A stretch of DNA of 57,411 nucleotides from Candidatus Wildermuthbacteria bacterium RIFOXYD1_FULL_50_12 (GCA_001825035.1 MHUO01000009.1:20754-78164); one strand, 5' to 3'; counted from the stretch's first letter, positions 1 to 30,113 are shown. Numbers and translations: made by a program. The notes: generated by a model not told the origin, from the letters alone.

Positions 1-753
1 GTGCCGTGCTTTGGTAACAACTGTGCGCAGGATTGGGAAAGTTTCGTGCTGGGCGTGAATGCCAGCGCGGCTCCCGCTGCCTATGTGCAGCCCATCGAGA
101 ACGAGAGCAAGACATTCGGCTGCGATTTGTGGGTTGAAGTGTTCAACGTGAGCTTGCCCAACGGCGGTATTCCTTGCGATGAAGATATTGATTTGATGCT
201 CGTGCTTGACCGATCTGGAAGCATCGATAGCAGCGAACTTGCTACACTGAAAACAGCCGCAAAGGCATTCGTAGATGCGCTAGTTCCTTCAGCGGATGGG
301 GTGCATATCGGAATGGTGAGCTTTTCTAGCGCAGCAACACTCGATCAAGAGCTCACTGGGGTTGGCCAGGATGTGAAAGATAAGATTGATCTTCTTAGTT
401 CGGGAGGTTTAACCAATCTTGAAGATGCACTTTTGGATGCAGCTGCAGAATTAGCGAGTGTGCGGGATCGTGACGATTCAACCGTCCCGGACTTTATCGT
501 ATTAATCACCGATGGCGCGCCAACAACCAGTAATATGGGTGGGGATCACGCGGCTAATGCAACAGCGGCCGCAACTGCTGCAAAAGCAGCTGGAATTGAA
601 ATCTTCGTTGTAGGAGTTGGTACTACAGGAAGCACAGCAACTTACCTGGAAACCAGCATCGCGAGCACCGATCCTCCAGAGCACTACTTTGACGCTGCTG
701 ATTTCGATGACTTGGAAGCAATTCTGCAGGGACTGACCGAGTGCCCGGCATAA
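1..753 (+). CDS. 5'-truncated exported protein with a Cys-rich locus-specific module followed by a von Willebrand factor A (vWA) domain
   Basis: Open at the window edge. Starts VPCFGNNCAQDW...FGCDLWVEV, the same module that ends the next two ORFs. Then DLMLVLDRSGSIDS (MIDAS DxSxS) ... VLITDGAPT, typical of vWA. Confidence 0.8.
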   Translation: MPCFGNNCAQDWESFVLGVNASAAPAAYVQPIENESKTFGCDLWVEVFNVSLPNGGIPCDEDIDLMLVLDRSGSIDSSELATLKTAAKAFVDALVPSADGVHIGMVSFSSAATLDQELTGVGQDVKDKIDLLSSGGLTNLEDALLDAAAELASVRDRDDSTVPDFIVLITDGAPTTSNMGGDHAANATAAATAAKAAGIEIFVVGVGTTGSTATYLETSIASTDPPEHYFDAADFDDLEAILQGLTECPA

Positions 754-838
754 ATTACTTGGAAACATCATTTTTTATTGATGTTATAAAAGGTCGAAAT
801 CTCATAGAGGTCGTATAACAAACCAAATTGAACAAACA

Positions 839-1621
839 ATGAAAAAGAAAATTTTCGTGGGCGCCTTGAGTTTGGTGGCAGTGGCTGGAGGCGTGGCAGG
901 ATTGTCCGCGTTTGAGGCGCACGTCATCAACGTAACCGCAAAAATCGAGAACGCATTGCAGGTTCCAACCGATCCATTGAATTTCGGAACTGTATTCCCG
1001 CAGGAAGAACTTGACCAAACGTTGCGTGTGGCACTTTCTTCGTCTTTCGCCAGCTCAACCGATGCAAACGATGTTGAGTACATCATTCGCCAAAAACCAA
1101 AATGTGGTGTCACAGAGGATGATGGAGAAACTCTCGTCGGTCCAACTTGGACAGGGCATATCGTAGCTGCCTCGGGTACCTCTGAGTATACAGTGGACTG
1201 TGACGAAGACAGGCCAGATGGAGTAGGCCCCGGCCCAACACCCGATTATTATCTTCTTCCTTCGCTTTGTGAGTATCTTTCCAAGCATCCAGATGCGAAC
1301 CCAACACCAGGGAATGATGATTCTTTGGATTCCTTCCACCAGCCCTGGACAATTAACCCCGATGGAACAATCGACTGGAATGATGTCGAAGGACGACTCG
1401 CAAAGTCTGAACAGGATCTTGAGGACACTTGGACTATCGATCTCAAAGTTCCATGCTTTGGAGATAACTGCGCGCAGGATTGGGCAGATTTCGTGACTGG
1501 AATCAATCCTGACGCAGATCCAGACGACTATGTACTTGATGAAGATCTTGAGCACAAGATTTTCGGGTGCAATCTTTGGATCGAAGTGACCGGAGTTTCC
1601 CGATTTTCTGATGAGGACTAA
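839..1621 (+). CDS. exported protein with a SipW-cognate-like signal (TasA/camelysin-like candidate), paralog 1
   Basis: MKKK plus a hydrophobic segment, then SAFEAHVINVTAKIENAL. Conserved Cys positions; C-terminal WTIDLKVPCFGDNCAQDW...FGCNLWIEV. Confidence 0.8.
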   Translation: MKKKIFVGALSLVAVAGGVAGLSAFEAHVINVTAKIENALQVPTDPLNFGTVFPQEELDQTLRVALSSSFASSTDANDVEYIIRQKPKCGVTEDDGETLVGPTWTGHIVAASGTSEYTVDCDEDRPDGVGPGPTPDYYLLPSLCEYLSKHPDANPTPGNDDSLDSFHQPWTINPDGTIDWNDVEGRLAKSEQDLEDTWTIDLKVPCFGDNCAQDWADFVTGINPDADPDDYVLDEDLEHKIFGCNLWIEVTGVSRFSDED

Positions 1622-1644
1622 ATAACGTCTAAGAGCAAGGTTGT

Positions 1645-2319
1645 ATGAAAAAGAAAATCGCGTTGGCAGGAATAGCTGTATTTGCTGCATTGGGCAGTGT
1701 GGCTGGATTGAGCGCGTTTGAAGCGTATGTGATCAACGTGACCGCGCAGATTGAAAACGCCTTGTTCGTTCACCCAGAAGCGCGGGATTTTGGCACGATG
1801 TTTCCGCAAGAATACAAAGAGCTTGGTTTCTTTGTTACCTTTTCTGAATCATTTTCAACGAGAGATCAAGACAGGGTTTCAAAGATAGACTATCAGATCA
1901 AGCAAAAGCCAAAATGCGCAGACAGCGTAACCAATCCCACGGAATTCAGCAAGGTAACGGAGGATGAGAATGGCGAATTCATCTGCCAGAATCCTGGACA
2001 CGTGATGCTGCCGTTGCTGTGCCCGTATCTGTCGAAAACCCCTGCGAATCTTGACGGAAACGATGTTGGAATTCCGGCATTCCATGATCCAGCCGCGATC
2101 GCCACAGGCACCATTAACAAACAGGCTGCTCATGTTGGCGATAACTGGACGATTGACTTGGCAGTGCCATGCTTTGAGGGGCAGTGCGCGCAGGATTGGT
2201 CTCTCTTTGTGGAAAGCCACAATCCAGACGCTGACCCAGACGAATTTATGGCAAACCCGGAAGATGAGAGCAAGGTATTCGGATGCGATCTTTGGGTGGA
2301 AGTGACAAGGATATATTGA
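1645..2319 (+). CDS. exported protein with a SipW-cognate-like signal, paralog 2
   Basis: MKKK plus a hydrophobic segment, then SAFEAYVINVTAQIENAL. Shares KQKPKC, LLCPYLSK and WTIDLAVPCFEGQCAQDW...FGCDLWVEV with the 839 ORF. Confidence 0.8.
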   Translation: MKKKIALAGIAVFAALGSVAGLSAFEAYVINVTAQIENALFVHPEARDFGTMFPQEYKELGFFVTFSESFSTRDQDRVSKIDYQIKQKPKCADSVTNPTEFSKVTEDENGEFICQNPGHVMLPLLCPYLSKTPANLDGNDVGIPAFHDPAAIATGTINKQAAHVGDNWTIDLAVPCFEGQCAQDWSLFVESHNPDADPDEFMANPEDESKVFGCDLWVEVTRIY

Positions 2320-2334
2320 TTGATTTCTGATTGA

Positions 2335-2368
2335 CCCCGCACCTTTTGCGTACGCAAAAGGTGCGGGG
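2335..2368 (+). terminator. 34-nt perfect palindrome (15-bp stem) after paralog 2
   Basis: CCCCGCACCTTTTGCGTACGCAAAAGGTGCGGGG starts 16 nt after the stop codon. No T-run follows, so it may be a terminator or a processing hairpin. Confidence 0.45.
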
Positions 2369-2383
2369 AAATGGGGAATCAAT

Positions 2384-2791
2384 ATGAAGAAAATTAAAAT
2401 CGCGATTCTCGTCGTTCTCGGAGTCATAGCGCTATTTGTGCTGGTGCAGATTATAAACGCCAGCAAATACGACATGGTGGTGAACGTGGTGGAAGGGGAG
2501 AACGTCGTTGGCGTGAATCCGCTTACGGAGCGCCTGGATTTTGGCGATCTCTCGCGCAACGGCAGATTGGCGCGGCAGGTAAGTGTGGCAAACGGCGGCG
2601 GCATTGATACTTACGTTATGGTGTGGACTCGTGGTGAACTCTCTGATTTGGTACGCGTGGATCCAAATTTCTTTATCGTAGCGCCAGGGCAAGAAGCGAA
2701 AATTTCGCTGGAAGTGCGCATCCCGCCTTCTGCTGAAACCCGGAAATACGAAGGGAAGGTGTGGGTGTTTCGTATTCCCAAGCCAATATAA
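2384..2791 (+). CDS. membrane-anchored small beta-sandwich-like protein, function unknown
   Basis: N-terminal TM (IAILVVLGVIALFVLVQII) followed by a beta-rich ~100 aa region. Its TAA stop overlaps the ATG of the signal peptidase gene (TAATG). Confidence 0.7.
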   Translation: MKKIKIAILVVLGVIALFVLVQIINASKYDMVVNVVEGENVVGVNPLTERLDFGDLSRNGRLARQVSVANGGGIDTYVMVWTRGELSDLVRVDPNFFIVAPGQEAKISLEVRIPPSAETRKYEGKVWVFRIPKPI

Positions 2792-3255
2792 TGGAGAATT
2801 TGGAACAACATGAAGAACGTACAACAGAGAAAAAGAAGTCGGCCGTAAGGAGTATTGTCGGCTGGATTGTGTATCTCGCTATTCTGGGAGGATTGATATA
2901 CGGTACGCCGGTCGTGTTAAGCAAGGTCTTGCAGAGCGAGTACCCCATGGCCGCGATTACGTCGGGTTCGATGTGGCCGACGATGAAAAAGGGAGATCTG
3001 GTCTTTATTAAAGGAGTTGAGGGCAAAGAAGAGATTGAGATTGGCGATATCGTGGTGTACCAGAATCCGCAGGGGTTCACGATTCACCGCGTGGTGGAGT
3101 TTAAAGACGGACAGGTGGTTACAAAGGGTGATGCCAACAATGCAGAAGATACTCCCGTTGCGTGGCGCGACATTATAGGCAAAACAGTGGAATGGCGCGG
3201 GAAGCCGTTTAAAATTTCCAAGCTTGGATATGTGAGCATACTACTAAATCAATGA
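2791..3255 (+). CDS. signal peptidase I, archaeal/ER type (SipW/Sec11-like, S26B)
   Basis: One TM, SGSMWPT (catalytic Ser box), GFTIHRVVE (His box) and TKGDANN (GDxN box). ATG at 2791 preferred over the GTG at 2761. Confidence 0.8.
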   Translation: MENLEQHEERTTEKKKSAVRSIVGWIVYLAILGGLIYGTPVVLSKVLQSEYPMAAITSGSMWPTMKKGDLVFIKGVEGKEEIEIGDIVVYQNPQGFTIHRVVEFKDGQVVTKGDANNAEDTPVAWRDIIGKTVEWRGKPFKISKLGYVSILLNQ

Positions 3256-3265
3256 TTAAAGGAGA

Positions 3266-4984
3266 ATGAGCAGTTACAGCTACTATAAGGAAACGAAGAT
3301 CAAGGTGCGTATATCCCCACTCGACTCCGCTCAGGGCGAGCGGCAGATGGCACTTGCTTTTGCTGCACCTGCTCTCGCGAAAAAGCGGCACGCCGCGCTC
3401 GGGCAGTGGGCGCGGGGTGCACTCGTGCTGGGGTTGGCGGGTTTGGTGGTACTGGGAAGTTCCGGATCCGCAATTTTAGCTTCTGCTTTTGAAGCGCACG
3501 TGGTGAACGTAACCGCCCAGATCGAACCGAGGCCGGAAGAAGAAACCACCACCCTTACTGTTACAAAAATTGTGTGTAACGATGAATCACTTCTTCCCAA
3601 CTGGGGCAATGTGAAAGGAGAGCCGCCTATCACGAGTTCAACGGCGGCGGACTTTCTCGCGAATCTCTCTGAAGACCAGGCCGATGACTGCTGGTTGGAA
3701 GAAGGATGGTTTTTCCAGTGGGCACCAGAAGAAGTATTCAACCAGTTTCCTCCACCCCCTCCGAGCAACACCGGAGAAGCGGGCGCTCCTTGGGTTGCCT
3801 TTGGCCCCACGAATATCAGCGGAGTTGCCAGTATCGTAGTGCCTTTGGATAATATCAACCCGCGCATTTGGGTACGAGAAGTGTTCAAAGAAGGATACTT
3901 CCCATTTTCCGTGGAAGATTCTTCGGTGGATGAAGACCTGCTCGCGTTTGACGACGTGTCTGCAGAGTTTTATTGCCACCGAGACGTTATCTATTACGAC
4001 AACCTTGATTTTGTTTCTTATCCTGCAGCTGGCGAAACTTACTACTGCGTGGCGTTCAACGTAGGGGAGCGTCAAGAACAGCTAAGCAGTACGCCGCAGC
4101 AGACAGTAGTGCTCAATGAGATTTTGCCCAATCCCGAAGGAGACGATAATCAAGACGGATTGCTCGGAGAATGGGTGGAACTGTATAACTTGGGAGATTC
4201 TGCGGTGAATGTTGCTAGCTGGTATTTGGAAGATGATTCTTCTTCTGGGAACCGGCAGACCATTTCCGACAGCAACACGCATACCGGCAGTACGGTTATA
4301 GGAGCCATGGGAAGCGGAAGCGAGTGGCTTGTGGTGTTTATGGCTGGAGTCGTGTTAAACAACACCGGAGATACCGTCTCTCTCTACAACACAGCAGACG
4401 AGCTGCAGGACGAGCATATCTATGGTACGAGCGCAAATGATCAAGATAGCGATACCGATACCACGCCCGGAGAAGAAAACGAACCCGCTGATGACGACGA
4501 TGCGGGCAATGAAGGCAAATCCGTAGCGCGTATTCCAGACGGTGCTGGTGATTGGTTTGATCCTGTGCCCACGCCCGGGGGCCCGAACAAGCTGGAGGAT
4601 TTTGGAGAAGAAGATTCTTCTGGTACATCAGATGGGTCTGGTGGTGGTTCGCCACCTCCTCCAGACGAAGAAGGGCACTCTTCTCTTGCGGAAGTCGATG
4701 AAGAAGGAGAGCTCGAAGGGGGAGAAATGCATGAGGCCGCTGAGGAACCTGCTGAGGAAGAGGGCGAAGGAGAAGAATCAGAGGAGGAAGGGAAACTGGA
4801 AGAAGATGAAAGTGAGGAACCAACAGATGGGCTCAGCGGAGAACCTGTGGAAGATTCCAGCGAAGAGGTCATTGTGGAAGTGAACCAAGAGGAGCAAGAT
4901 GTTCAGAGTGAAGATTCAGATAGCGAGGCCGCAGAGGAAGATGGAACTCCCGAGGAAAGTGCTTCTGAGGAACCAGGGGACTAA
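3266..4984 (+). CDS. exported lamin-tail-domain (LTD) protein with a polyacidic C-terminal tail
   Basis: Hydrophobic segment then SAFEAHVVNVTAQIE. LTD signature VVLNEILPNPEGDD...EWVELYN...GDTVSLYN. The last ~170 aa are rich in E and D. Start uncertain; alternative ATG at 3347. Confidence 0.75.
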   Translation: MSSYSYYKETKIKVRISPLDSAQGERQMALAFAAPALAKKRHAALGQWARGALVLGLAGLVVLGSSGSAILASAFEAHVVNVTAQIEPRPEEETTTLTVTKIVCNDESLLPNWGNVKGEPPITSSTAADFLANLSEDQADDCWLEEGWFFQWAPEEVFNQFPPPPPSNTGEAGAPWVAFGPTNISGVASIVVPLDNINPRIWVREVFKEGYFPFSVEDSSVDEDLLAFDDVSAEFYCHRDVIYYDNLDFVSYPAAGETYYCVAFNVGERQEQLSSTPQQTVVLNEILPNPEGDDNQDGLLGEWVELYNLGDSAVNVASWYLEDDSSSGNRQTISDSNTHTGSTVIGAMGSGSEWLVVFMAGVVLNNTGDTVSLYNTADELQDEHIYGTSANDQDSDTDTTPGEENEPADDDDAGNEGKSVARIPDGAGDWFDPVPTPGGPNKLEDFGEEDSSGTSDGSGGGSPPPPDEEGHSSLAEVDEEGELEGGEMHEAAEEPAEEEGEGEESEEEGKLEEDESEEPTDGLSGEPVEDSSEEVIVEVNQEEQDVQSEDSDSEAAEEDGTPEESASEEPGD

Positions 4985-5023
4985 AGGTCGTGAAAAGAGA
5001 AAGTAGTAGTTATCATTTCTCTT

Positions 5024-5788
5024 ATGAACAAAATTGATTTGAAAAAATACGTCGCGTGGAGTGCGTTCGCCGCTGTAATGGCCACAGGGATGTTTTGGGG
5101 CGGAACTTTATCTGCACAGGATTCAGAGTCCTCCGACATCCCCGAAGTTGTGGTTGGCCAGGTGGGCGGAGGCCAGGAGAATGGCGCGATGATGCAAACA
5201 GCAGAGTTGACCGAAGAGGAGAGGTTGGCGCTCCTTGCGGACATTGCGTGGCAGCTTGAGGAGGCGGAACAAGAGTTGCTTCGTTTGTCTTTAATTCTTG
5301 CGAAGATGGCTCTTGAGGAGCAGGTATTAGCGCTGGAACGGCAACTCCAGGAGCAATTGGCGGTTGAAGCGCAAGAGGTATCTGTGGAAAACCCCCCGCT
5401 GGCAGGGGCAGAAGAACTTGTTCAAGGCTCGGAGTCCGATTTGAAGGAAGAATCCGTCAGTGTTGTCGCTTTTGAGCAGGAAGAAGGTCCGCCAGTCGAC
5501 GGTGAAGAAGAGAGCGAAGATGAAAGAGGTTTTCTTGCTGCGCTCGGTCCTTTGGGCAATTTGGGAACGCCCGAGCTTTCTGCTCTTGGCATCCTTGTTT
5601 TCCTCGCCGCGTTTATTCTGATACGGCGAGTGCGCGCGCGCAAAGAGCGTTCCGGTTTTGTGAAGAGCGCGCCGCCTGCGGTGCCTCAGGTTCCCTCTTC
5701 GCAGCCCTCCGTTCAGCAGCCCCAATCCCAACAGGGAACGCTGCAGGAGCGCAGGGAAGATCTGAAGGATAGAGTTGCTTGGGAGTAG
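5024..5788 (+). CDS. hypothetical secreted or membrane protein with an acidic coiled-coil and a C-proximal TM
   Basis: Signal-like N-terminus, an E/L/Q-rich helical region, then TM LSALGILVFLAAFILI followed by RRVRARK. Confidence 0.6.
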   Translation: MNKIDLKKYVAWSAFAAVMATGMFWGGTLSAQDSESSDIPEVVVGQVGGGQENGAMMQTAELTEEERLALLADIAWQLEEAEQELLRLSLILAKMALEEQVLALERQLQEQLAVEAQEVSVENPPLAGAEELVQGSESDLKEESVSVVAFEQEEGPPVDGEEESEDERGFLAALGPLGNLGTPELSALGILVFLAAFILIRRVRARKERSGFVKSAPPAVPQVPSSQPSVQQPQSQQGTLQERREDLKDRVAWE

Positions 5789-5803
5789 CCCTCTTGGTAT
5801 ACT
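5775..5803 (+). promoter_or_regulatory. candidate sigma70-type promoter for hup
   Basis: TTGCTT, 17-nt spacer, TGgTATACT (extended -10), about 60 nt upstream of the HU start. Confidence 0.4.
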
Positions 5804-5863
5804 ATTGCTTGGATTGCTAAGGTCGAGGCGATTTTGCAATGTTTAAGTTTTTGCATCATCATA

Positions 5864-6139
5864 ATGAACAAAGAACAACTTCTTGAGGTAATGGCGCAAA
5901 AGGCAAACATTACCAAAAAGCAGGCCGGAGAAGCGCTTGAGGCGTTGACCGGCGGAATTGTGGATGCCCTGAAAAAAGGGAAGAGCGTTGCCCTTACGGG
6001 ATTTGGGACTTTTAAGACATCCAAAAGGGCGGCGCGGCAGGGGGTGAATCCGGCAACGGGCGCCAAGATTCAGATTCCGGCCGCCGTCGTCCCCAAGTTC
6101 TCTGCGGGAAAAGGACTGAAGGAAGCGGTAAGGAAATAG
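5864..6139 (+). CDS. hup: DNA-binding protein HU
   Basis: MNKEQLLEVMAQKANITKKQA...GFGTFKTSKRAARQGVNPATGAKIQIPA, a canonical HU/IHF fold sequence. Confidence 0.92.
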   Translation: MNKEQLLEVMAQKANITKKQAGEALEALTGGIVDALKKGKSVALTGFGTFKTSKRAARQGVNPATGAKIQIPAAVVPKFSAGKGLKEAVRK

Positions 6140-6159
6140 GATCAGTGAACGCAAAACAG

Positions 6160-6206
6160 AAAAACACCCTGATCCGCCAGTTGGCGGAGGAAGGGTGTTT
6201 TTCTGT
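6160..6206 (+). terminator. rho-independent terminator after hup
   Basis: AAAAACACCCT...CCGCCA/TGGCGG...AGGGTGTTTTT, a long hairpin ending in a T-run. The A-run on the other side suggests it works in both directions. Confidence 0.7.
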
Positions 6207-6347
6207 TAGTCGGGCCAAGCGGAATTGAACCGCTATCATACCCCCCTGGGCGCGCCGCAGGCGCGGCACCAATCAGGAGTTTGTTCAAAATAGGTTCGAG
6301 CGGCGTTCAGTAATTGCGACCAAGCTAGTGACTAGAAAACGGCACAC

Positions 6348-6377
6348 TTGACAGATTAAGGATACCTTGAGTATGAT
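6348..6377 (+). promoter_or_regulatory. candidate promoter
   Basis: TTGACA, 18-nt spacer, TATGAT. Confidence 0.45.
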
Positions 6378-6452
6378 GAACTAATCAGTATCGCGGTCTT
6401 TGGGATGAAGAACTGTCGACTCATACCAATAACCTTGCTAGGCGACTCAGCC

Positions 6453-6476
6453 GCACCAATTTTGGTGCAGTTTTTT
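6453..6476 (+). terminator. small hairpin plus T-run
   Basis: GCACCA-ATTT-TGGTGC followed by AGTTTTTT, about 75 nt downstream of the 6348 promoter and 33 nt upstream of the 6509 start. Confidence 0.4.
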
Positions 6477-6508
6477 ATAAAAAATAATTAATAATTCATT
6501 CTTTTATT

Positions 6509-7279
6509 ATGAACAAACAAAGATTTTCTCTCGTCAAATTCTCCCCCAAGATTGAAAGTTTTTTTTCTCGCCTCGCTTTGATAGGCATCGCCATACTATC
6601 TCTATTTATAATTGCAACACTGGTTGGCGTAGTAAAAGCAGCGCTCCAAGTAAAAGATACAGATGACTCCTATATTCTTGGAAGACTTGGCATTGGGACC
6701 GATTTTTCTTACTCTCTTCCTTCAGGAATGGGAGACCATAGGCAGCTAACAGTATATGATGATTCGAATATTGCCCTGCTTCGAATAGAGGGATCTGGCG
6801 TGCATACTAATGCCGCTCTAGAACTGGCAAACGCAACGGGTGGTAGGGAACAATGGTCAATAGGCATACGAGCACCCGGAGATATTTCTGGGCCAGAAAA
6901 TAGACTTAATTTTATGTACTTTGATGGTACTGGTTGGGCAGAAAAAATGGCTCTGCGGGACAATGGTAATGTCGGCATTGGAACAACCGACCCCCAAGCA
7001 AAACTCCATATTGGCGATGGGGGTTCTGTTGCATTAGACGGCACAGACTCTGCTGGATTTGCCTTGGGAGGAGATGGAGATACGGGTGGTTGGGGCGGCT
7101 ACTGGTACGGAATGTCTAATGGCGATGCCGCTGTGCTCAATTTGAGTGGTACGAACGACATGGACGCTGACCCCGTATTAATACAGGGCTTTTGGGGAAT
7201 TGGTTTGAGGACTGACCGTGCCAAGATAATTATGGAGCGAGACGGAGAAATTTGTATTGGAAGCGGTTGCCCATACTAA
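6509..7279 (+). CDS. hypothetical membrane-anchored Gly-rich protein (tail-fibre-like GNVGIGTT motif)
   Basis: N-terminal TM. Motifs LGIGTD and GNVGIGTTDPQAKLHIGDGG. Lies in a low-GC region. Confidence 0.65.
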   Translation: MNKQRFSLVKFSPKIESFFSRLALIGIAILSLFIIATLVGVVKAALQVKDTDDSYILGRLGIGTDFSYSLPSGMGDHRQLTVYDDSNIALLRIEGSGVHTNAALELANATGGREQWSIGIRAPGDISGPENRLNFMYFDGTGWAEKMALRDNGNVGIGTTDPQAKLHIGDGGSVALDGTDSAGFALGGDGDTGGWGGYWYGMSNGDAAVLNLSGTNDMDADPVLIQGFWGIGLRTDRAKIIMERDGEICIGSGCPY

Positions 7280-7318
7280 AAACCAAATCCTTGCCAAGAA
7301 TTTCTTAGTTAAAGCGAT

Positions 7319-9256
7319 ATGAAAGTATTTGATCCTACATTATGGGCTAAAAAAATCAGGTGGATTGTTTTTGCTGGTATACTATCAGTGCTTCTGGGAA
7401 TAGGGGTATTGCAGGGTTCAATTCAAGCTGTTTCCCCAGGGGGCAACCCCAACGATATTCCAGCTAAATACAGCGCTCTTTTCCAGAAAGCTCAAACAAA
7501 CGGAAGAATTCCAGTAATTGTTGGTTTTAAAACCGGATTTGAGCTAGGGCAATTAGAAGTGAGTCTGGCAGAAAGACAAGCAATCTCCCAAGCCCAAGGC
7601 AGGACACTCCAAGGAATTAAGCAGGGCCAAGCAACCTCGGTAAAAAAATTCACATACATTCCATATATGGCCCTGGAAGTGGATGAAAAAGCTTTAGCTG
7701 ACTTAATTTCTCAAGAAGGGGTGATTAGCATTGAAGAAGATATCGCGGTTCCTCCTACCCTTTCTGACACTATTCCTTTAATCGGAGCAGAGGATGCTTG
7801 GGCTGGAGGCTATTCTGGCGCCGGACAAGTTATCGCTATCTTAGATACCGGAGTTGACAAGAATCATCCTTTTCTGGCAGGTAAAGTGGTATCAGAAGCA
7901 TGTTATTCGTCCAACACTGCTACGTCTTCCACGCTATGCCCAAATGGCCAAGTGCAGCAAATCGGTAGCGGAGCAGGAGTGAATTGTTCAATAGCTGGTT
8001 GTTATCACGGAACGCATGTGGCTGGCATTGCTGCTGGCAAGGGCTCTGATTTTTCCGGAGTGGCTAAAGATGCCAATATTATTGCAATTCAAGTGTTTAG
8101 TAATTTTTCAGGAGACGTACGGAGTCGGTCTAGCGATCAGATTCTTGGTTTGGAAAGAGTATATAATCTTCGAAACGCCTATAACATTGCAGCAGCAAAT
8201 ATGAGTTTGGGTGGCGGGAGAAATACTTCCCCTTGTGATGGTGATTCTCGAAAATCAATTATCGATCTCCTAAAAGGAGCGGGTATTGCCACTGTAATTT
8301 CATCTGGTAATGACTCCTACTCGGATGCTATTTCTTCCCCCGGCTGTATTTCAAGCGCTGTGAGCGTAGGAGCTACCACAAAATCAGATCAGGTGGCTTC
8401 TTTCTCGAATAGCGCTTCTTTTCTTGATTTGCTGGCTCCTGGGGAGGACGTTAATTCGTCAGTTCCCGGAGGAAGATTTATAAAATTGGATGGCACATCA
8501 ATGGCAGCTCCTCATGTGGCTGGCGCGTGGGCGATATTGCAACAGAAATCGCCCCAATCCAGTGTGGATGAAATATTATCTGCCCTGGCCAATACGGGAA
8601 AGCCAATATGGGACAATCGCAACAATATCACCAAACCTCGAATTCAAGTTGGTAGAGCCATCGGAGTAGAATATTTCACAGCCTCTAAGGGAACTGTAGC
8701 ATCTACAACCGATAGGATAAAGTATGTTTTTATTAAAGATTATCCCGGAGATCCTTTAGCGAGTAGCGTGTATTTGGTTAAGCGCAGCAAAGTGGAAATG
8801 ACGGCTTCTCTAAGTGGTTATTTGGGCAGGCCCGAGGTCTGGGGAGCTGGCAAAATTTCCAATGGTTGGTCTGCTGCCAATCCCAATCACCAGAGAGGTT
8901 ATTGCGGGATTGTCTCTCGAACCGATAAATCAGTTGTACTCCAGACGTTTGTTTATGAAGTATGGGATATTGCTGGCAGTTATGTTGGCTGGCTACCTAC
9001 TACTGCAGAAAATGCTACTTGCGGTTACGCGGTTTTGGGTACCCGGTGTACTCCGCCCATATTCGGGAGCTGGGAAATACCAGAAAACTGCACCTTTACC
9101 GGTAGCGCCACTGCTCCCGGAAATGTCATTGTCAAAGAGAATGTCGGGCTTACTATTGGCGAGAATTCTGCCTTAGATATTGATTTTCTCAATCACTATT
9201 TGTGGGTAGATAAGGGAGGGAAAGTAGTTATAAAGCAAGGCGGGAAGATTTATTAA
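7319..9256 (+). CDS. subtilisin-like serine protease (peptidase S8) with N-terminal propeptide and extra C-terminal domains
   Basis: Catalytic triad contexts AILDTGVD, HGTHVAGIAAG and GTSMAAPHVAG. Signal/TM at the N-terminus. Confidence 0.9.
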   Translation: MKVFDPTLWAKKIRWIVFAGILSVLLGIGVLQGSIQAVSPGGNPNDIPAKYSALFQKAQTNGRIPVIVGFKTGFELGQLEVSLAERQAISQAQGRTLQGIKQGQATSVKKFTYIPYMALEVDEKALADLISQEGVISIEEDIAVPPTLSDTIPLIGAEDAWAGGYSGAGQVIAILDTGVDKNHPFLAGKVVSEACYSSNTATSSTLCPNGQVQQIGSGAGVNCSIAGCYHGTHVAGIAAGKGSDFSGVAKDANIIAIQVFSNFSGDVRSRSSDQILGLERVYNLRNAYNIAAANMSLGGGRNTSPCDGDSRKSIIDLLKGAGIATVISSGNDSYSDAISSPGCISSAVSVGATTKSDQVASFSNSASFLDLLAPGEDVNSSVPGGRFIKLDGTSMAAPHVAGAWAILQQKSPQSSVDEILSALANTGKPIWDNRNNITKPRIQVGRAIGVEYFTASKGTVASTTDRIKYVFIKDYPGDPLASSVYLVKRSKVEMTASLSGYLGRPEVWGAGKISNGWSAANPNHQRGYCGIVSRTDKSVVLQTFVYEVWDIAGSYVGWLPTTAENATCGYAVLGTRCTPPIFGSWEIPENCTFTGSATAPGNVIVKENVGLTIGENSALDIDFLNHYLWVDKGGKVVIKQGGKIY

Positions 9257-12398: not shown

Positions 12399-14504
12399 AT
12401 GCCGAGGCAATATCCCATTGAAAAATACCGAAATATAGGAATTATTGCGCATATTGACGCCGGAAAAACGACGAGCACCGAGCGCGTTTTGTTTTACACG
12501 GGAATTTCCCATAAAATTGGCGAAGTGCACGAAGGAGCCGCCATTATGGACTGGATGGTGCAGGAACGAGAGCGGGGTATTACCATTACGGCAGCTGCCA
12601 CCACCTGCTTTTGGGTCCCAACGTATTTGCCCAACGAACAGGCGAATAAATACCGCATTAACATTATTGACACGCCGGGTCACATTGATTTTACCGCCGA
12701 AGTTCAGCGCTCGCTTCGAGTATTAGACGGAGCAATCGTAATTTTTGATGGTGTGGCGGGGGTGGAGCCGCAGTCAGAAACCGTGTGGCGCCAGGCAGAC
12801 AAGTTCGGCGTGCCGCGCATTTGTTTCGTTAACAAAATTGACCGCGTTGGAGCTTCGTTTGAAAAAAGTTTGAATTCTATTCGGGAGAAACTTACGAGAA
12901 ACGCCGTTGCTTTGCAGATTCCCATTGGCGAAGAGAGTCAGTTGAAAGGGGTGATTGATTTGCTGGAAATGAAGGCGAAATATTTTGAAGGGGATTTTGG
13001 GCAGACCGTAAAGACCGGAGAAATACCCGAGGAACTTGCGGAGAAAGCAAAGGAATGGCGCGGTAGGGCCTTAGAAAAGGTTGCCGCGGAAGATGAGGTC
13101 TTGATGGAAAAATATCTCGGCGGGGAGGAGCTTTCCGTGGAGGAGATTAAGCGGACGCTCAGGCGAGCGACGATCAAAGGCAAATTGGTACCGGTGTTTA
13201 CGGGAGCTGCTTTAAAAAACTTGGGAGTGCAAATGGTGCTTGACGGCGTGGTTGACTATTTGCCGAGTCCGGTTGACGTCAGCGCCATTGAGGGTACGGA
13301 CCCAAAGACGGGAGAGACAATCGAGAGAAAACCCTCCGACGCAGAGCCGTTTTCGGCGCTTGCCTTTAAGGTAGCTTCCGATCCCTTTGTGGGAACGCTT
13401 ACATACTTTAGGGTGTATTCAGGTACTCTTCAGAAGGGCTCTTACGTGCAAAACTCCACAACCGAAGAGCGAGAACGCATCAGCCGGATTTTGCGCATGC
13501 ATGCGGCGGAGCGCGAAGAAGTTGGCGAACTTTACGCAGGAGATATTGCGGCTACCGTGGGCTTGAAGAATACGAGCACGGGTCATACCCTGTGCGCCGA
13601 GAACTCTCCCATTGTATTGGAGCAAATTTCGTTCCCCGAGCCCGTTATCTCAATTCGCATAGAGCCCAAAACCAAAGCAGATCAGGAGAAGATGGGTTTG
13701 GCGCTCAGGCGTTTGGCAGAGGAAGACCCCACATTCCGCGTGAACTCCGACTTGGAAACGGGAGAGACGATAATTTCTGGCATGGGAGAATTGCATCTGG
13801 AAATTATCGTGGACCGCATGAAGCGGGAATTTTCCGTGGGCGCAGCCGTAGGGCGGCCGCAGGTGGCGTATAAGGAAACGATCAGAGGCAAGGCGGAGAC
13901 CGAGGCAAAATACGTGCGTCAGTCGGGCGGAAGAGGGCAGTACGGCCATGTGTTTTTGCGCGTGGAGCCCAAGAAAGAAGGGGAAGGGTTTGAGTTCGTG
14001 GACGAGATTAAGGGAGCCGCGATCCCTCGCGAATATATTCCTGCGGTGCAAAAAGGTATTCAGGAAGCCATGGATAAAGGCGTGCTGGCGGGCTACCCTG
14101 TGGTGGACCTCAAAGCCTCTTTGTATGACGGCTCGTATCACGAAGTGGATTCCTCGGAATTCGCCTTTAAAATAGCGGCTTCCATGGCTTTCCAGGAAGC
14201 AGCCAAAAAGGCGGAGTTGGTGCTGTTGGAGCCCATCATGCGCTTGGAGGTGACGGTTCCCTCTCGATTTCTTGGGGACGTAATCGGCGATCTTTCTTCA
14301 AGGAGGGGGCGCATTGAGGAAACTGAAGACCGCCTTGATATGAAAATTATTTCGGCGAAAGTCCCTCTGGCAGAGATGTTCGGGTACGCCACCAATCTCC
14401 GCTCCTTGACGGAAGGGCGGGGAACCTTTACTATGGAGTTTGAGCGATACGAACAAGTGCCCTCCAATATCACGCAGGAGGTTATTGAGGGTAAACGAAG
14501 ATGA
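12399..14504 (+). CDS. fusA: elongation factor G
   Basis: [23 protein letters not shown]. Full-length at 701 aa. Confidence 0.95.
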
Positions 14505-28882: not shown

Positions 28883-28937
28883 ATGTGGGGAGAAGAATCG
28901 CCAAATCTGCCTGTTTTTGATAAAATCTAATAATACT

Positions 28938-30113
28938 ATGATTAAGAAGCAACGAGGCCAATTCTTTACCACCGAAGCCGATTACATATTCCAGGGTTTT
29001 GGAAAATATGTAAAAGGTAAATCCATCACTGATCCTTTTGCCGGAAGCGGAGATCTGTTGGAATGGGCAAAAAAGAATGGTGCGAAAGCAGTGTCAGGAT
29101 ATGACGTGGACGCTAGTCTTGCTGATGGAAGAAAGATTTTGTTGAATGATTCCTTATTGCGACCCAAACAATATGGGTTCGTAGTTACGAATCCACCCTA
29201 TTTGAATATCAATAAAGCAGATCGACACACAAAGAGTCTCTATTTCCAGGATCATAAGTACGAAGATCTGTATCAGCTTTCGCTTGCCTCGCTGATAAGC
29301 AGCAAGGAAGGTATCGTAATTGTGCCAGTCAACTTTCTTTCTGCGGAAAACTCAAAAAGGATCAGAGAACTTTTCTTTTCCAAGTTCGAAATTATTGAAC
29401 TGAACTACTTCACGAAACGCGTATTTCCCGACACGACATATAATGTCATTGCTTTTTACTACCGAGAAAAAAAGGATTCTTCGAGTAATTCCATGGTAGC
29501 CAAAGTAAAAATACTCCCAGAAGAAAGGCTCTTGAGTATTGAGCTCAATAAGCGGTTCCATTGGAAAATAGGAGGCGAGGTTTTAACGAGAATTGAAGAA
29601 CAGAAAAATCTTTTGGGGATTCATCGCCTTATTGAATATGATATTAAAAAGGGCGATAGGTTAGTAAAAGTTGCTTACAGCCATATCAAAAAAACACGCG
29701 AGTATCGCGTTTCCGAAGATTTTTATACGGCAATCAAGGCAAATATCCTTTTTCTTCGAGCAATAGATAGCGGCACACCCGAGGGGAAAATCCGCCTTGA
29801 GAATATTCGAGATTATGGCATTGACTGCTTGATTAGCAAGGAAAGTTCGCGACATATGATTAACTTGCTTTTCGATAAGAAAATCTCCCTCAAGGAGCAA
29901 AGAATACTTATGGATCTTTTCAACGAAGAAATCAATAGGTTACGCGACAACTATTTTTCACTTTTCTTGACAAACTTCAGGGATAACAACCGTAAGCGGA
30001 TTTCGTTTGATTTTGCGTATAAATTTATTAATTATTTGTACTTTACTAAAATGAAACCAGAATTGGGGGAGGGAAGATTACTCCCCCTCAAGAATTATGA
30101 ACAGGTGGGTTGA
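28938..30113 (+). CDS. N6-adenine DNA methyltransferase (gamma-class, type II R-M)
   Basis: GQFFTT, then motif I DPFAGSGDLL, then motif IV TNPPY. ATG 28938 preferred over TTG 28917. Confidence 0.85.
   Translation: MIKKQRGQFFTTEADYIFQGFGKYVKGKSITDPFAGSGDLLEWAKKNGAKAVSGYDVDASLADGRKILLNDSLLRPKQYGFVVTNPPYLNINKADRHTKSLYFQDHKYEDLYQLSLASLISSKEGIVIVPVNFLSAENSKRIRELFFSKFEIIELNYFTKRVFPDTTYNVIAFYYREKKDSSSNSMVAKVKILPEERLLSIELNKRFHWKIGGEVLTRIEEQKNLLGIHRLIEYDIKKGDRLVKVAYSHIKKTREYRVSEDFYTAIKANILFLRAIDSGTPEGKIRLENIRDYGIDCLISKESSRHMINLLFDKKISLKEQRILMDLFNEEINRLRDNYFSLFLTNFRDNNRKRISFDFAYKFINYLYFTKMKPELGEGRLLPLKNYEQVG

Follow-up and report, generated by a model that had tools for sequence, protein, structure and literature searches.

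At the start of the window, by which we mean the whole stretch of DNA that was analysed (57 kb; 57,411 nucleotides), lies a compact series of genes that are listed in Table 1. Re-checking by ORF translation found the ORFs where the original prediction had placed them, but that inventory had overlooked the ORF 2384-2791, which encodes a 135-aa membrane-anchored beta-sandwich protein. The three complete ORFs that had been said to carry a near-identical string behind a hydrophobic segment indeed do so: directly past the n-/h-region of the signal-type segment, SAFEAHVINVTAKIE is found in the 260-aa protein, SAFEAYVINVTAQIE in the 224-aa protein and SAFEAHVVNVTAQIE in the 572-aa protein, with (S)AFEA[HY]V[IV]NVTA[KQ]IE as common string. 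In a six-frame motif scan of the whole window, this motif, herein termed tag, was confined to these three among 611 ORFs of at least 50 aa; the shared string is confirmed as real and is no chance likeness.

Table 1. Coordinates of the genes and tags at the locus
Feature	Position	Strand	Remark
3' part of tag + module + VWA gene	1..753	+	425 aa in full
Tag + module protein A, 260 aa	839..1621	+	287 bits to family HMM
Conserved tag AFEAHVINVTAKIENAL	908..958	+	residues 24-40 of protein A; almost unchanged in 213 distinct sequences
Tag + module protein B, 224 aa	1645..2319	+	protein chosen for structure modelling
Conserved tag AFEAYVINVTAQIENAL	1714..1764	+	residues 24-40 of protein B; pLDDT 59-77 vs >90 in fold
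Small membrane-anchored protein, 135 aa	2384..2791	+	AF2 pLDDT 87.9
Archaeal/ER-type signal peptidase I (S26B), 154 aa	2791..3255	+	longest ORF from 2761
Tag-only protein, 572 aa	3266..4984	+	lamin-tail domain (LTD; PF00932) at 8e-13
Conserved tag AFEAHVVNVTAQIE	3485..3526	+	in LTD protein
Acidic coiled-coil protein, 254 aa	5024..5788	+	signal peptide + C-terminal TM helix

The truncated first ORF begins with the C-terminal end of the same Cys-rich module (residues 1-50 match the family HMM with 66 bits), followed by a VWA domain (PF00092, 1e-25) with an intact MIDAS motif (DRSGS...T...D), and the full-length gene in identical public contigs (L082-L084) starts with ...GLSAFEAHVINVTAKIENAL, which is the same tag. 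Its proposed membership in the family is supported, and the protein is a candidate adhesive subunit. Proteins A and B are paralogs (42% identity, E 3e-59) and candidate shaft subunits; protein A has no cargo domain and no match in Pfam or NCBIfam, and all homologs of protein B (n=777) are hypothetical proteins of Patescibacteria. The 572-aa protein consists of a long N-terminal region, a TM/h-region, the tag, a SpaA-like stretch, the LTD and an acidic tail. The module is missing from it, and the family HMM covers only its residues 57-89. Further downstream, the acidic coiled-coil protein is kept behind the cluster in close relatives only (a homolog at 13671-14384 of locus L005 has the same position); it matches no Pfam family at cut-off, a match to Enkurin being at chance level (E 0.0065, 17.4 vs 23.6 bits), and it is possibly an accessory, with uncertain membership in the cluster. 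As had been stated for the cluster, no ATPase, usher or sortase was found within positions 1-6500 by Pfam and NCBIfam searches.

The tagged proteins form a family of 647 clusters at 50% identity, for which Pfam and NCBIfam contain no model, and in agreement with the proposed CPR background all homologs and loci are from Patescibacteria. In 213 distinct sequences, the Ala at -1 is present in 210 and the Glu at +1 in 213, and each position of the string A-H-V-I-N-V-T-A is at least 93% conserved. Outside of this nearly invariant tag, in contrast, the paralogs diverge down to about 40% identity. Tag and module are also found apart, on separate proteins. The cargo domains of the family are of kinds typical of adhesins and pilus stalks: VWA, which had been noted in one member of the cluster, is the most common one (36 of 112 larger family members), and SpaA_2, SpaA_4, SdrD_B and carbohydrate-binding modules occur as well.

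We examined 75 loci of species representatives, 60 of which were informative for a linkage to the peptidase. The peptidase gene is present at 59 of the 75; at 15 of the other 16, the contig ends within about 400 bp, and only one informative locus (L046) lacks it. The synteny check thereby upheld the idea of a dedicated peptidase encoded beside substrates with a cognate tag, and a single gene order is found at 59 of the 60 informative loci. First come one to five genes for proteins that combine the tag with a Cys-rich beta-sandwich module and in many cases bear fused VWA or SpaA-like domains, then the gene of the small MSP/PapD-like membrane protein, then the S26B signal peptidase gene, and last one gene for a tag-only protein, which often bears an LTD, and sometimes a gene for a module protein that has no tag. 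Within the 59 species-level loci, all 130 tag + module genes precede both the small gene and the peptidase gene, a tag-only gene follows directly downstream of the peptidase gene at 47, and a tag-less module gene is found downstream at 21. The suggested accessory role of the LTD protein is in line with its conservation, with an LTD in 19 of 48 tag-only proteins.

The peptidase, which had been named as the only enzyme of the cluster and as Sec11/SipW-type (S26B), passed the cut-off of the archaeal-type signal peptidase I model TIGR02228 (86.0 bits, cut-off 51.85). It has a single N-terminal TM helix, and its motifs SGSMWP, IHRV and GDAN are each kept in at least 90% of 61 orthologs. These motifs are of the Ser/His(/Asp) type (SGSMxP, HR, GDxN) and not of the Ser/Lys type of LepB-like enzymes. 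Rather than at 2761, the start is most likely at 2791, in overlap with the small gene's stop codon; public contigs likewise have the enzyme called as 154 aa. An assignment as SipW equivalog (NF046067) was rejected with 46.1 bits, where 190 are needed; judging from its sequence, the enzyme is of the same class as SipW, yet no SipW ortholog. Cleavage could take place between [AS] and AFEA, comparable to TasA with its cut between TWA and AF, or one residue on, between A and FEA, and at one of these two sites the -3 position is bulky (F/L/M). The originally suggested cut after LSA is possible, but the site one residue earlier is equally so. In TasA, the Phe at P2' causes inefficient cleavage by E. 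coli LepB, and SipW does the processing (PMC10269814).

Is the tag then a mere extended recognition or processing determinant of the peptidase? The operon would in that case constitute a private secretion route for soluble or matrix products without any ordered assembly. It agrees with this idea that the predicted cleavage site adjoins the tag, that TasA-type substrates depend on SipW through P' residues (PMC10269814), and that the cluster has none of the above-mentioned assembly components. However, recognition by type I signal peptidases depends mainly on P3-P1 and a few P' residues and does not extend over 17 residues with strand-like alternation, and the tag-less module proteins of the same operons have ordinary signal peptides ending in ..VSA, and therefore the export of modules is independent of the tag. 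We regard this explanation as improbable.

The 135-aa protein is a component of the cluster that is conserved as strongly as the peptidase, and its gene lies directly 5' of the peptidase gene in 59 of 59 loci. In the AF2 model, an N-terminal TM helix is directly followed by a beta-strand (KYDMVVNVVEGEN) and then by an MSP/PapD-like sandwich of 7-8 strands. Foldseek matched it to MSP/VAP at 4e-4 and also to CEP192 ASH, CsuC and Caf1M, and the best 50 PDB fold matches were MSP, ASH and PapD-like domains, with no subunit of a signal peptidase complex among them. No Pfam or NCBIfam family matched above cut-off, and between the N-terminal region of the protein and the region of the tag there is a weak alignment. 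We propose that the protein serves as anchor, chaperone or peptidase partner. As to the latter, it might be an accessory subunit of the Sec11-type peptidase outside of the fibre, similar to eukaryotic Spc3, a membrane protein of type II whose beta domain is luminal. The gene is always directly next to that of the peptidase or overlaps it, the protein has the corresponding architecture of a single TM helix and a beta ectodomain, and the peptidase TafD in tafi clusters is likewise accompanied by TafG (PMC11821415). An Spc3-like function nevertheless appears quite unlikely, as the best 50 fold matches point to MSP, ASH and PapD-like domains instead and sequence matches above cut-off are missing; it would concern this one component only and is compatible with the fibre model presented below.

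MSP domains bind short linear motifs by beta-strand augmentation, and the cleaved tag could thus dock onto the small protein in this way, resulting in a surface display of monomeric adhesins that are tethered to the membrane without polymerisation. The universal occurrence of the small TM protein, always beside the peptidase, would fit well, as would its fold, which belongs to a peptide- or strand-binding class, the very diverse cargo that bears the tag, and the tag being free in the AF2 monomer. However, a mere display would leave the two or more cargo-less tag + module proteins per locus without a role, the tag-less module proteins at fixed positions (21 of 59 loci) are hard to explain unless the module is a strand acceptor, and there would be many substrates for one small anchor. 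We consider such a tethering unlikely.

The AF2 model of protein B (pLDDT 91.6) has a helix at residues 2-22 and a beta-sandwich at residues 40-223, and the tag residues 23-39 in between are unpacked (pLDDT 59-77). When the model was compared to the PDB by Foldseek, donor-strand fibres were three of the best five matches, namely the Pyrodictium cannulae 9h8b (E 0.016, TM 0.35/0.48, the 0.48 by target), the Hyper2 tube 9bab (E 0.046) and the TasA fibre 8aur_A (E 0.076, TM 0.35). In the suggested comparison to TasA and archaeal pilins, the fibres of CanA, Hyper2 and TasA are thus among the matches, but all of them are weak, as no match reached E<=1e-3 and TM scores ranged from 0.28 to 0.48. For the module, no sequence similarity to any PDB chain was found. 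The profiles that had been suggested as a check of TasA kinship gave no support: PF12389 (Peptidase_M73) had no hit at E<=0.1 in the window proteins and none at E<=1 among 99 diverse family representatives, and TIGR04088 (SipW-cognate signal peptide) had no hit at E<=10 in the N-terminal 50-57 residues. Membership in the TasA/camelysin family by sequence was rejected on these grounds, which agrees with the original remark that the substrates do not obviously resemble these proteins. HHalign, with TasA as the only alignment from the TasA superfamily, gave a probability of 51-52% in local mode against 117 TasA-family sequences, which came from the signal peptide and the AAF junction, nothing in global mode, and 15% against TasA alone.

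How does this system compare to known fibres? TasA fibres of Bacillus form by donor-strand exchange, and TapA provides the first strand. The Bacillus system and the one described here have in common an ER/archaeal-type peptidase encoded among its own substrates, a region around and after the cut site that is shared by the substrates, with the hydrophobic-small-A-F junction aligning to W-A-A-F of TasA, an accessory that shares no more than the N-terminal strand (TapA there, the LTD protein here), a monoderm-type envelope, and a weak fold match to the fibre 8aur. In contrast to TasA, the module is Cys-rich and not detected by PF12389 or TIGR04088, with only the signal region aligning in HHalign; there are several subunit paralogs, many of them with VWA, SpaA or CBM cargo; and the small MSP/PapD-like membrane protein is a universal extra component. 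Precedents for subunits of a donor-strand fibre that are encoded together with a type I signal peptidase of their own are tapA-sipW-tasA (PMC9245690, PMC10151520), AbpX (bioRxiv 10.1101/2024.12.30.630787) and haloarchaeal tafi, whose fibre is abolished by deletion of tafD (PMC11821415). The tafi system (TafA/C/E/F, TafD, TafG; PMC11821415) is likewise a multi-subunit fibre with proposed assembly by strand donation, with tip/initiator, adapter, core and anchor parts, a dedicated peptidase that is needed for processing, as would be the case here, and a conserved companion gene of that peptidase. However, tafi uses the Tat pathway, whereas Sec-type signals (KKK, no twin arginine) are present here, TafD has four TM helices and two domains and the peptidase here is minimal, the companion here is not DUF5305, and no sequence relation was found.

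Beta-sandwich or jelly-roll subunits would be shared with cannulae CanA/CanX, Hyper2, AbpA/AbpX and the 0406 thread (bioRxiv 10.1101/2024.12.30.630787; PMC9245690), as would an N-terminal donor strand without structure in predictions of the monomer, for which the tag is the candidate, and a chaperone-free assembly. In the PDB, the folds that match the module best are 9h8b and 9bab, yet weakly (E 0.016-0.046), and this family is bacterial, restricted to Patescibacteria and equipped with a modular cargo architecture. The assumed presence of a dedicated peptidase in archaeal bundling pili applies to AbpX, whose genes often adjoin a signal peptidase I gene, but not to AbpA (PMC9245690; bioRxiv 10.1101/2024.12.30.630787). 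In chaperone-usher pili, too, the subunits have an N-terminal extension that the tip protein (such as FimH) lacks, and the operon encodes a PapD-fold protein, but their subunit folds are unrelated by sequence, neither usher nor outer membrane is present here, and the PapD-like protein is single-domain and TM-anchored instead of two-domain and periplasmic; as no cluster protein belongs to an usher family, such a pilus was rejected. Gram-positive sortase pili resemble the system in their VWA tip-like and SpaA, CnaB or SdrD_B stalk domains. However, their common element is C-terminal and not N-terminal, and sortase gene, LPXTG sorting signal and pilin motif are all absent here (the C-termini are ...TECPA, ...FSDED, ...TRIY and ...EEPGD), and a sortase-assembled pilus was rejected as well.

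On balance, we favour the view that the locus is a chromosomal, Patescibacteria-specific operon which encodes a surface fibre or adhesin system that needs neither sortase nor usher and is built by strand complementation, similar to TasA/SipW or tafi. Sequences, folds and a conserved order of genes have been shown above; export, cleavage by the local peptidase, polymerisation and adhesion are inferred as follows. Each structural protein would be exported by Sec, and the archaeal/ER-type peptidase of the operon would cut the signal peptide beside the invariant Ala, either between [A/S] and AFEAHV or between A and FEAHV. About 10 residues, (A)FEAHVINVTA, would thereby be exposed as a conserved N-terminal extension in front of the disulfide-rich beta-sandwich module; in protein A, the tag is proposed as mature N-terminal extension and candidate donor strand. 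In the least certain step, the extension would insert as beta-strand into the module of the next subunit, and this donor-strand complementation would give rise to a fibre, with a shaft of the plain 224- and 260-aa proteins and with adhesion mediated by VWA or SpaA-like fusions. The donor-strand idea has indirect support from the fixed operon positions of tag-only and tag-less module proteins, from the unpacked tag in AF2, and from the weak CanA/Hyper2/TasA fold matches. As the tag-only LTD protein could donate a strand but not accept one, we tentatively propose it to be an initiator, cap or base, by analogy with TapA or TafC. Tag-less module proteins, where present, would only accept a strand, like FimH-type tips, and the small membrane protein would act in one of the roles named above. 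Long cytoplasmic N-termini are common in the tag-only protein and the small protein, and both therefore may stay membrane-anchored and uncleaved.

A more far-reaching and doubtful version would be that donor-strand pili were here invented independently for a third time, in a form specific to Patescibacteria, and that their assembly machine consists of no more than a minimal Sec11-type peptidase and a single-domain PapD/MSP-like protein that is tethered to the membrane. Cleavage at the membrane would then be coupled to a hand-over of the fresh N-terminal strand to the growing fibre, and the tag-like strand behind the TM helix of the small protein would serve as membrane anchor or placeholder. 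If so, a fibre with VWA or lectin-like cargo at its tip would mediate the attachment of the episymbiont to its host alongside type IV pili. The operon is tightly conserved and has so far been unannotated, and if it does encode a fibre, the ultra-small Patescibacteria would possess a second attachment device beside type IV pili.

The best-supported reading of the gene cluster at the start of the window is a fibre or adhesin system that works like TasA/SipW or tafi. Within nucleotides 1-5000, six tightly spaced genes follow each other in the same direction (see table), and three of their products share the string SAFEA[HY]V[IV]NVTA[KQ]IE, here called the tag. In the 260-aa and 224-aa proteins, the tag stands after MKKK and a hydrophobic segment, and in the 572-aa protein it is preceded by a longer N-terminal region and a hydrophobic segment. 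Of the 611 ORFs obtained by scanning the window in all six frames, these three alone contain the motif, and chance similarity was rejected as its source. This confirms the original prediction, which had noticed the string in three complete ORFs and had placed the truncated first ORF in the same family; for the latter, public contigs identical to the window (e.g. GCA_003545535.1, groundwater metagenomes) contain the full-length gene, which encodes 425 aa and starts ...GLSAFEAHVINVTAKIENAL. The part inside the window begins within the C-terminal Cys-rich part of the module, the beta-sandwich domain of the family, and continues with a VWA domain (PF00092, 1e-25), in which the MIDAS DRSGS...T...D is legible. 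The 260-aa and 224-aa proteins are 42% identical (E 3e-59) and, as judged from this similarity, are paralogs. In the 572-aa protein, the match to the family profile is confined to the tag.

Features of the cluster and of other parts of the window
Feature	Position	Strand	Remarks
VWA gene, 3' end only	1-753	+	cut by window edge
Tag+module protein, 260 aa	839-1621	+	
Tag+module protein, 224 aa	1645-2319	+	
Small protein, 135 aa	2384-2791	+	
Signal peptidase ORF	2761/2791-3255	+	
Tag-only protein, 572 aa	3266-4984	+	lamin-tail domain (LTD) PF00932, 8e-13; acidic tail
Acidic coiled-coil protein, 254 aa	5024-5788	+	signal peptide, C-terminal TM helix, Q/P-rich cytoplasmic tail
Protein, 256 aa	6509-7279	+	N-terminal TM helix; no Pfam match
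Secreted S8 subtilase	7319-9256	+	PF00082, 1.7e-37; C-terminal extension of roughly 200 aa; 2.3 kb downstream of cluster
Protein, 398 aa	9276-10472	+	no Pfam match
Low-G+C segment	28001-30900		G+C 0.41 vs about 0.50 elsewhere in window
Eco57I-like methylase gene	28917-30113		PF07669, 2e-7

The peptidase passes the model for archaeal-type signal peptidase I (TIGR02228, 86 bits vs a curated cut-off of 51.85) and scores far under the cut-off of the SipW equivalog model. Its longest ORF begins with a GTG at 2761 and the ATG conserved as start lies at 2791; public gene calls give a protein of 154 aa. As this ATG and the small gene's stop codon overlap, translational coupling of the two genes is suggested. 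A promoter and terminator scan of 1-7400 gave counts no higher than those of shuffled controls. A search for dedicated assembly genes in the operon found no ATPase, usher or sortase, and an LPXTG signal is also absent. Sortase pilus, chaperone-usher pilus and type IV pilin were rejected as readings; the tag lies behind the hydrophobic segment and not ahead of it.

The arrangement of these genes is conserved far beyond the window. One scan of GTDB species representatives gave 75 loci, all from Patescibacteria MAGs and assigned to Ryan-, Harrison-, Vogel-, Wildermuth-, Azam-, Giovannoni-, Taylor-, Portnoy-, Doudna- and Uhrbacteria and Paceibacteria, with a few evidently generic or wrong lineage labels; module, small protein and peptidase were identified in them by HMMs, and the tag by a regular expression. 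The peptidase is present in 59 of the 75 loci, and in all 59 the small gene lies immediately 5' of it, with tag-bearing genes 5' of the small gene. Among the 16 loci that lack it, 15 have no more than about 400 bp left after their last module gene, and a single Uhrbacteria locus (MGEK01000001.1, 1699-4575) has room for it (7.4 kb). Alone among the informative loci, this one has neither small protein nor peptidase within 7.4 kb downstream of its family genes, and in it a tag-less module gene stands before a tag+module gene. Every one of the 130 tag+module genes precedes both small gene and peptidase, in 47 of the 59 loci the peptidase is followed by exactly one tag-only gene, and a module gene without tag is found further downstream in 21 of them, though not in the window. 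It could in principle be that the tag serves to dock adhesins as monomers to the small membrane protein, or that it is a determinant for the peptidase and nothing more, but both explanations account poorly for the fixed operon positions of cargo-less tag+module proteins and of tag-less module proteins.

For the 224-aa protein, databases contain 777 homologs, all from Patescibacteria/Parcubacteria and all unnamed or “hypothetical”, and no Pfam domain was found among them. An exhaustive profile search yielded 647 clusters (50% identity) at E<=1e-3 and 273 at E<=1e-30, in which the module is nearly always N-terminal. With 99 diverse representatives, the module matched nothing in Pfam or NCBIfam even at E<=1, and a profile search of all PDB sequences returned two chance hits only (E about 1). 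Our literature searches, including Patescibacteria combined with donor strand, TasA-like or signal peptidase, found no paper that contains the motif string or describes the system. Seven representatives (P0310, P0314, P0319, P0345, P0353, P0355, P0361) match the profile in two stretches, the best of which covers profile positions of about 75-233 near residues 230-450, and this pattern points to modules that are tandem or partially duplicated within a polypeptide. The cargo is what adhesins and pilus stalks typically carry: VWA occurs in 36 of the 112 larger tag/module proteins and SpaA_2, SpaA_4, SdrD_B, DUF642, Ice_binding and further domains in others, LTD in 19 of the 48 tag-only proteins, which also carry SdrD_B, SpaA and carbohydrate-binding modules, and SdrD_B, SpaA, VWA and DUF11 in tag-less module proteins.

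The AF2 model of the 224-aa protein (53 sequences; mean pLDDT 91.6, pTM 0.78) shows a signal helix at residues 2-22, the tag as coil at residues 23-39 (block pLDDT 59-77), and a confident beta-sandwich of about nine strands at residues 40-223. In Foldseek searches of the PDB, no match reached E<=1e-3; the top five were the CEP192 PapD-like domain (7.7e-3), the Pyrodictium cannula subunit 9h8b (1.6e-2; TM 0.48 by target), a DUF4466 protein, the Hyper2 tube 9bab (4.6e-2) and the TasA fibre 8aur (7.6e-2). Cannula, Hyper2 and TasA are TasA-superfamily fibres that assemble by donor-strand complementation (bioRxiv 10.1101/2024.12.30.630787), and that three of the five best matches of the model belong to this group is suggestive, not conclusive. 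The model of the small protein (40 sequences from database homologs; mean pLDDT 87.9) has a TM helix at residues 3-25, a strand at 27-36 immediately thereafter, and an MSP/PapD-like sandwich, which best matches MSP/VAP domains (4e-4), CEP192 ASH, the chaperones CsuC and Caf1M, and Dr adhesins. After its TM helix, the stretch A-x-K-Y-x-A-x-V-x-V-x-E-G-E..VGVNP..LDFGDL aligns weakly with A-F-E-A-H-V-I-N-V..IENAL.V.P..FGTV of the subunits (HHalign, E 1.7e-3, probability 16%); as only the N-terminal 52 columns align at this probability, a common origin of small protein and module does not follow.

Around the tag, 213 distinct sequences have Pro at position -5 in 120 cases, F, L or M at -3, A or S at -2, Ala at -1 in 210 cases, F or Y at 0, and Glu at +1 throughout. 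This pattern fits cleavage at [A/S]↓AFEA or at A↓FEA. In HHalign, f-a-A-F of the family lands on W-A-A-F of TasA, which is processed by SipW and cut as TWA↓AF, with a P2' Phe that E. coli LepB cleaves inefficiently (PMC10269814), and because of this alignment [A/S]↓AFEA is slightly favoured. The cut after ..LSA in the original prediction is thus one of two fitting sites, and the preferred one would lie one residue ahead of it. The clearest tag-less module genes (module score >=150 bits; loci L011, L018, L028, L030, L036, L054, L005; the remaining ones are more divergent) encode an ordinary ...VSA↓ signal followed directly by xHVxIDxNLSVSP...FxTVFPGE. As they retain the equivalent of IENALxVxP and lack AFEAHVINV, the comparison defines (A)FEAHVINVTA as a separable N-terminal extension, after which comes the segment that forms the fold's first strand. 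In the window (3266-3480) and in the closely related locus L005 (11365-12555), the LTD proteins have a conserved N-terminal stretch in common, SSYSY[YK]..T.I.VR, which precedes the TM segment and is presumably cytoplasmic, and small proteins of many lineages have N-terminal extensions of 30-100 aa; because of these stretches, both proteins may be signal-anchored and not cleaved. The tag of the L005 LTD protein bears an insertion, AFEPDAVEGHVVNVTA.

The operon resembles tapA-sipW-tasA, tafi and AbpX in its logic, and differs from known systems in its Cys-rich module, its explicit grammar of tag+module, tag-only and module-only proteins, its rich fused cargo and its extra, universal MSP/PapD-like membrane protein. 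The original prediction had proposed searches with TIGR04088 (SipW-cognate signal) and PF12389 (Peptidase_M73/TasA), and neither matched, the former with N-terminal fragments, the latter with the window proteins and the 99 representatives. With TasA by itself as with an alignment of 117 TasA sequences, HHalign paired only the signal region. Sequence tests thus do not place the tagged proteins in the TasA family. PF12389 homologs have been noted in Patescibacteria in a study of archaeal bundling pili (PNAS 2022, PMC9245690); the tagged family is undetectable with that model.

Sequences, folds and gene order are shown by the analysis; for such a TasA- or tafi-like fibre, we infer that the subunits would be exported by Sec and processed by the S26B peptidase of the operon, and that the exposed N-terminal extension of one subunit would insert into the next. 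The 224-aa and 260-aa proteins would then build the shaft, and the VWA fusion would be the adhesin. The tag-only LTD protein could be a strand-donating initiator or cap, for which TapA, the nucleator of TasA (PMC10151520), is a model, and for which TafC has been proposed in tafi (PMC11821415). In loci that have them, module proteins without tag would be acceptor-only ends. The small MSP/PapD-like protein could present a tag-like strand as membrane anchor, act as a tethered chaperone, or be the peptidase's partner; its alternative identity as a Spc3-like peptidase subunit is compatible with strand exchange.

The remainder of the window is ordinary chromosome (HU, S8 subtilase, EF-G, EF-Tu, AlaRS, GatA, tRNAs). 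HU recurs downstream of the cluster in L005; HU and the subtilase were rejected as conserved parts of the system, as they are absent from the distant loci L001 and L003 (gene calls, Pfam hits). The subtilase, on whose two sides the 256-aa and 398-aa proteins lie, is probably unrelated to the cluster, since it does not adjoin it in these two loci, and it could process surface proteins in this lineage. In L005, a homolog of the 254-aa coiled-coil protein occupies the corresponding place behind the cluster (13671-14384), and this protein might be a lineage-specific accessory or anchor. The low-G+C segment coincides with the methylase gene and may be an acquired restriction-modification island. 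The cumulative GC skew climbs monotonically and nearly all real-looking long ORFs are on the + strand, consistent with a position of the whole window on one replichore with genes co-oriented with replication.

Cultivated Patescibacteria are all obligate episymbionts that are attached to other microbes. So far, hardly anything but type IV pili has been linked to this attachment (e.g. PMC12206443). The operon, which is conserved in many Parcubacteria/Paceibacteria lineages, would be a second surface apparatus, and in it a private signal peptidase of archaeal type is joined by domains of adhesins, namely VWA with intact MIDAS, SpaA-like stalks and carbohydrate-binding modules. As its components are small and few, heterologous reconstitution is realistic. 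If strand exchange holds, the TasA/tafi class of chaperone-free fibres would reach the CPR, tag+module, tag-only and module-only proteins would provide a simple testable rule, and a family of ~650 clusters that is now annotated as hypothetical only could get a name. The conservation is striking, and the system, with polymerisation as its inferred key step, bears on the attachment of CPR cells to their hosts.
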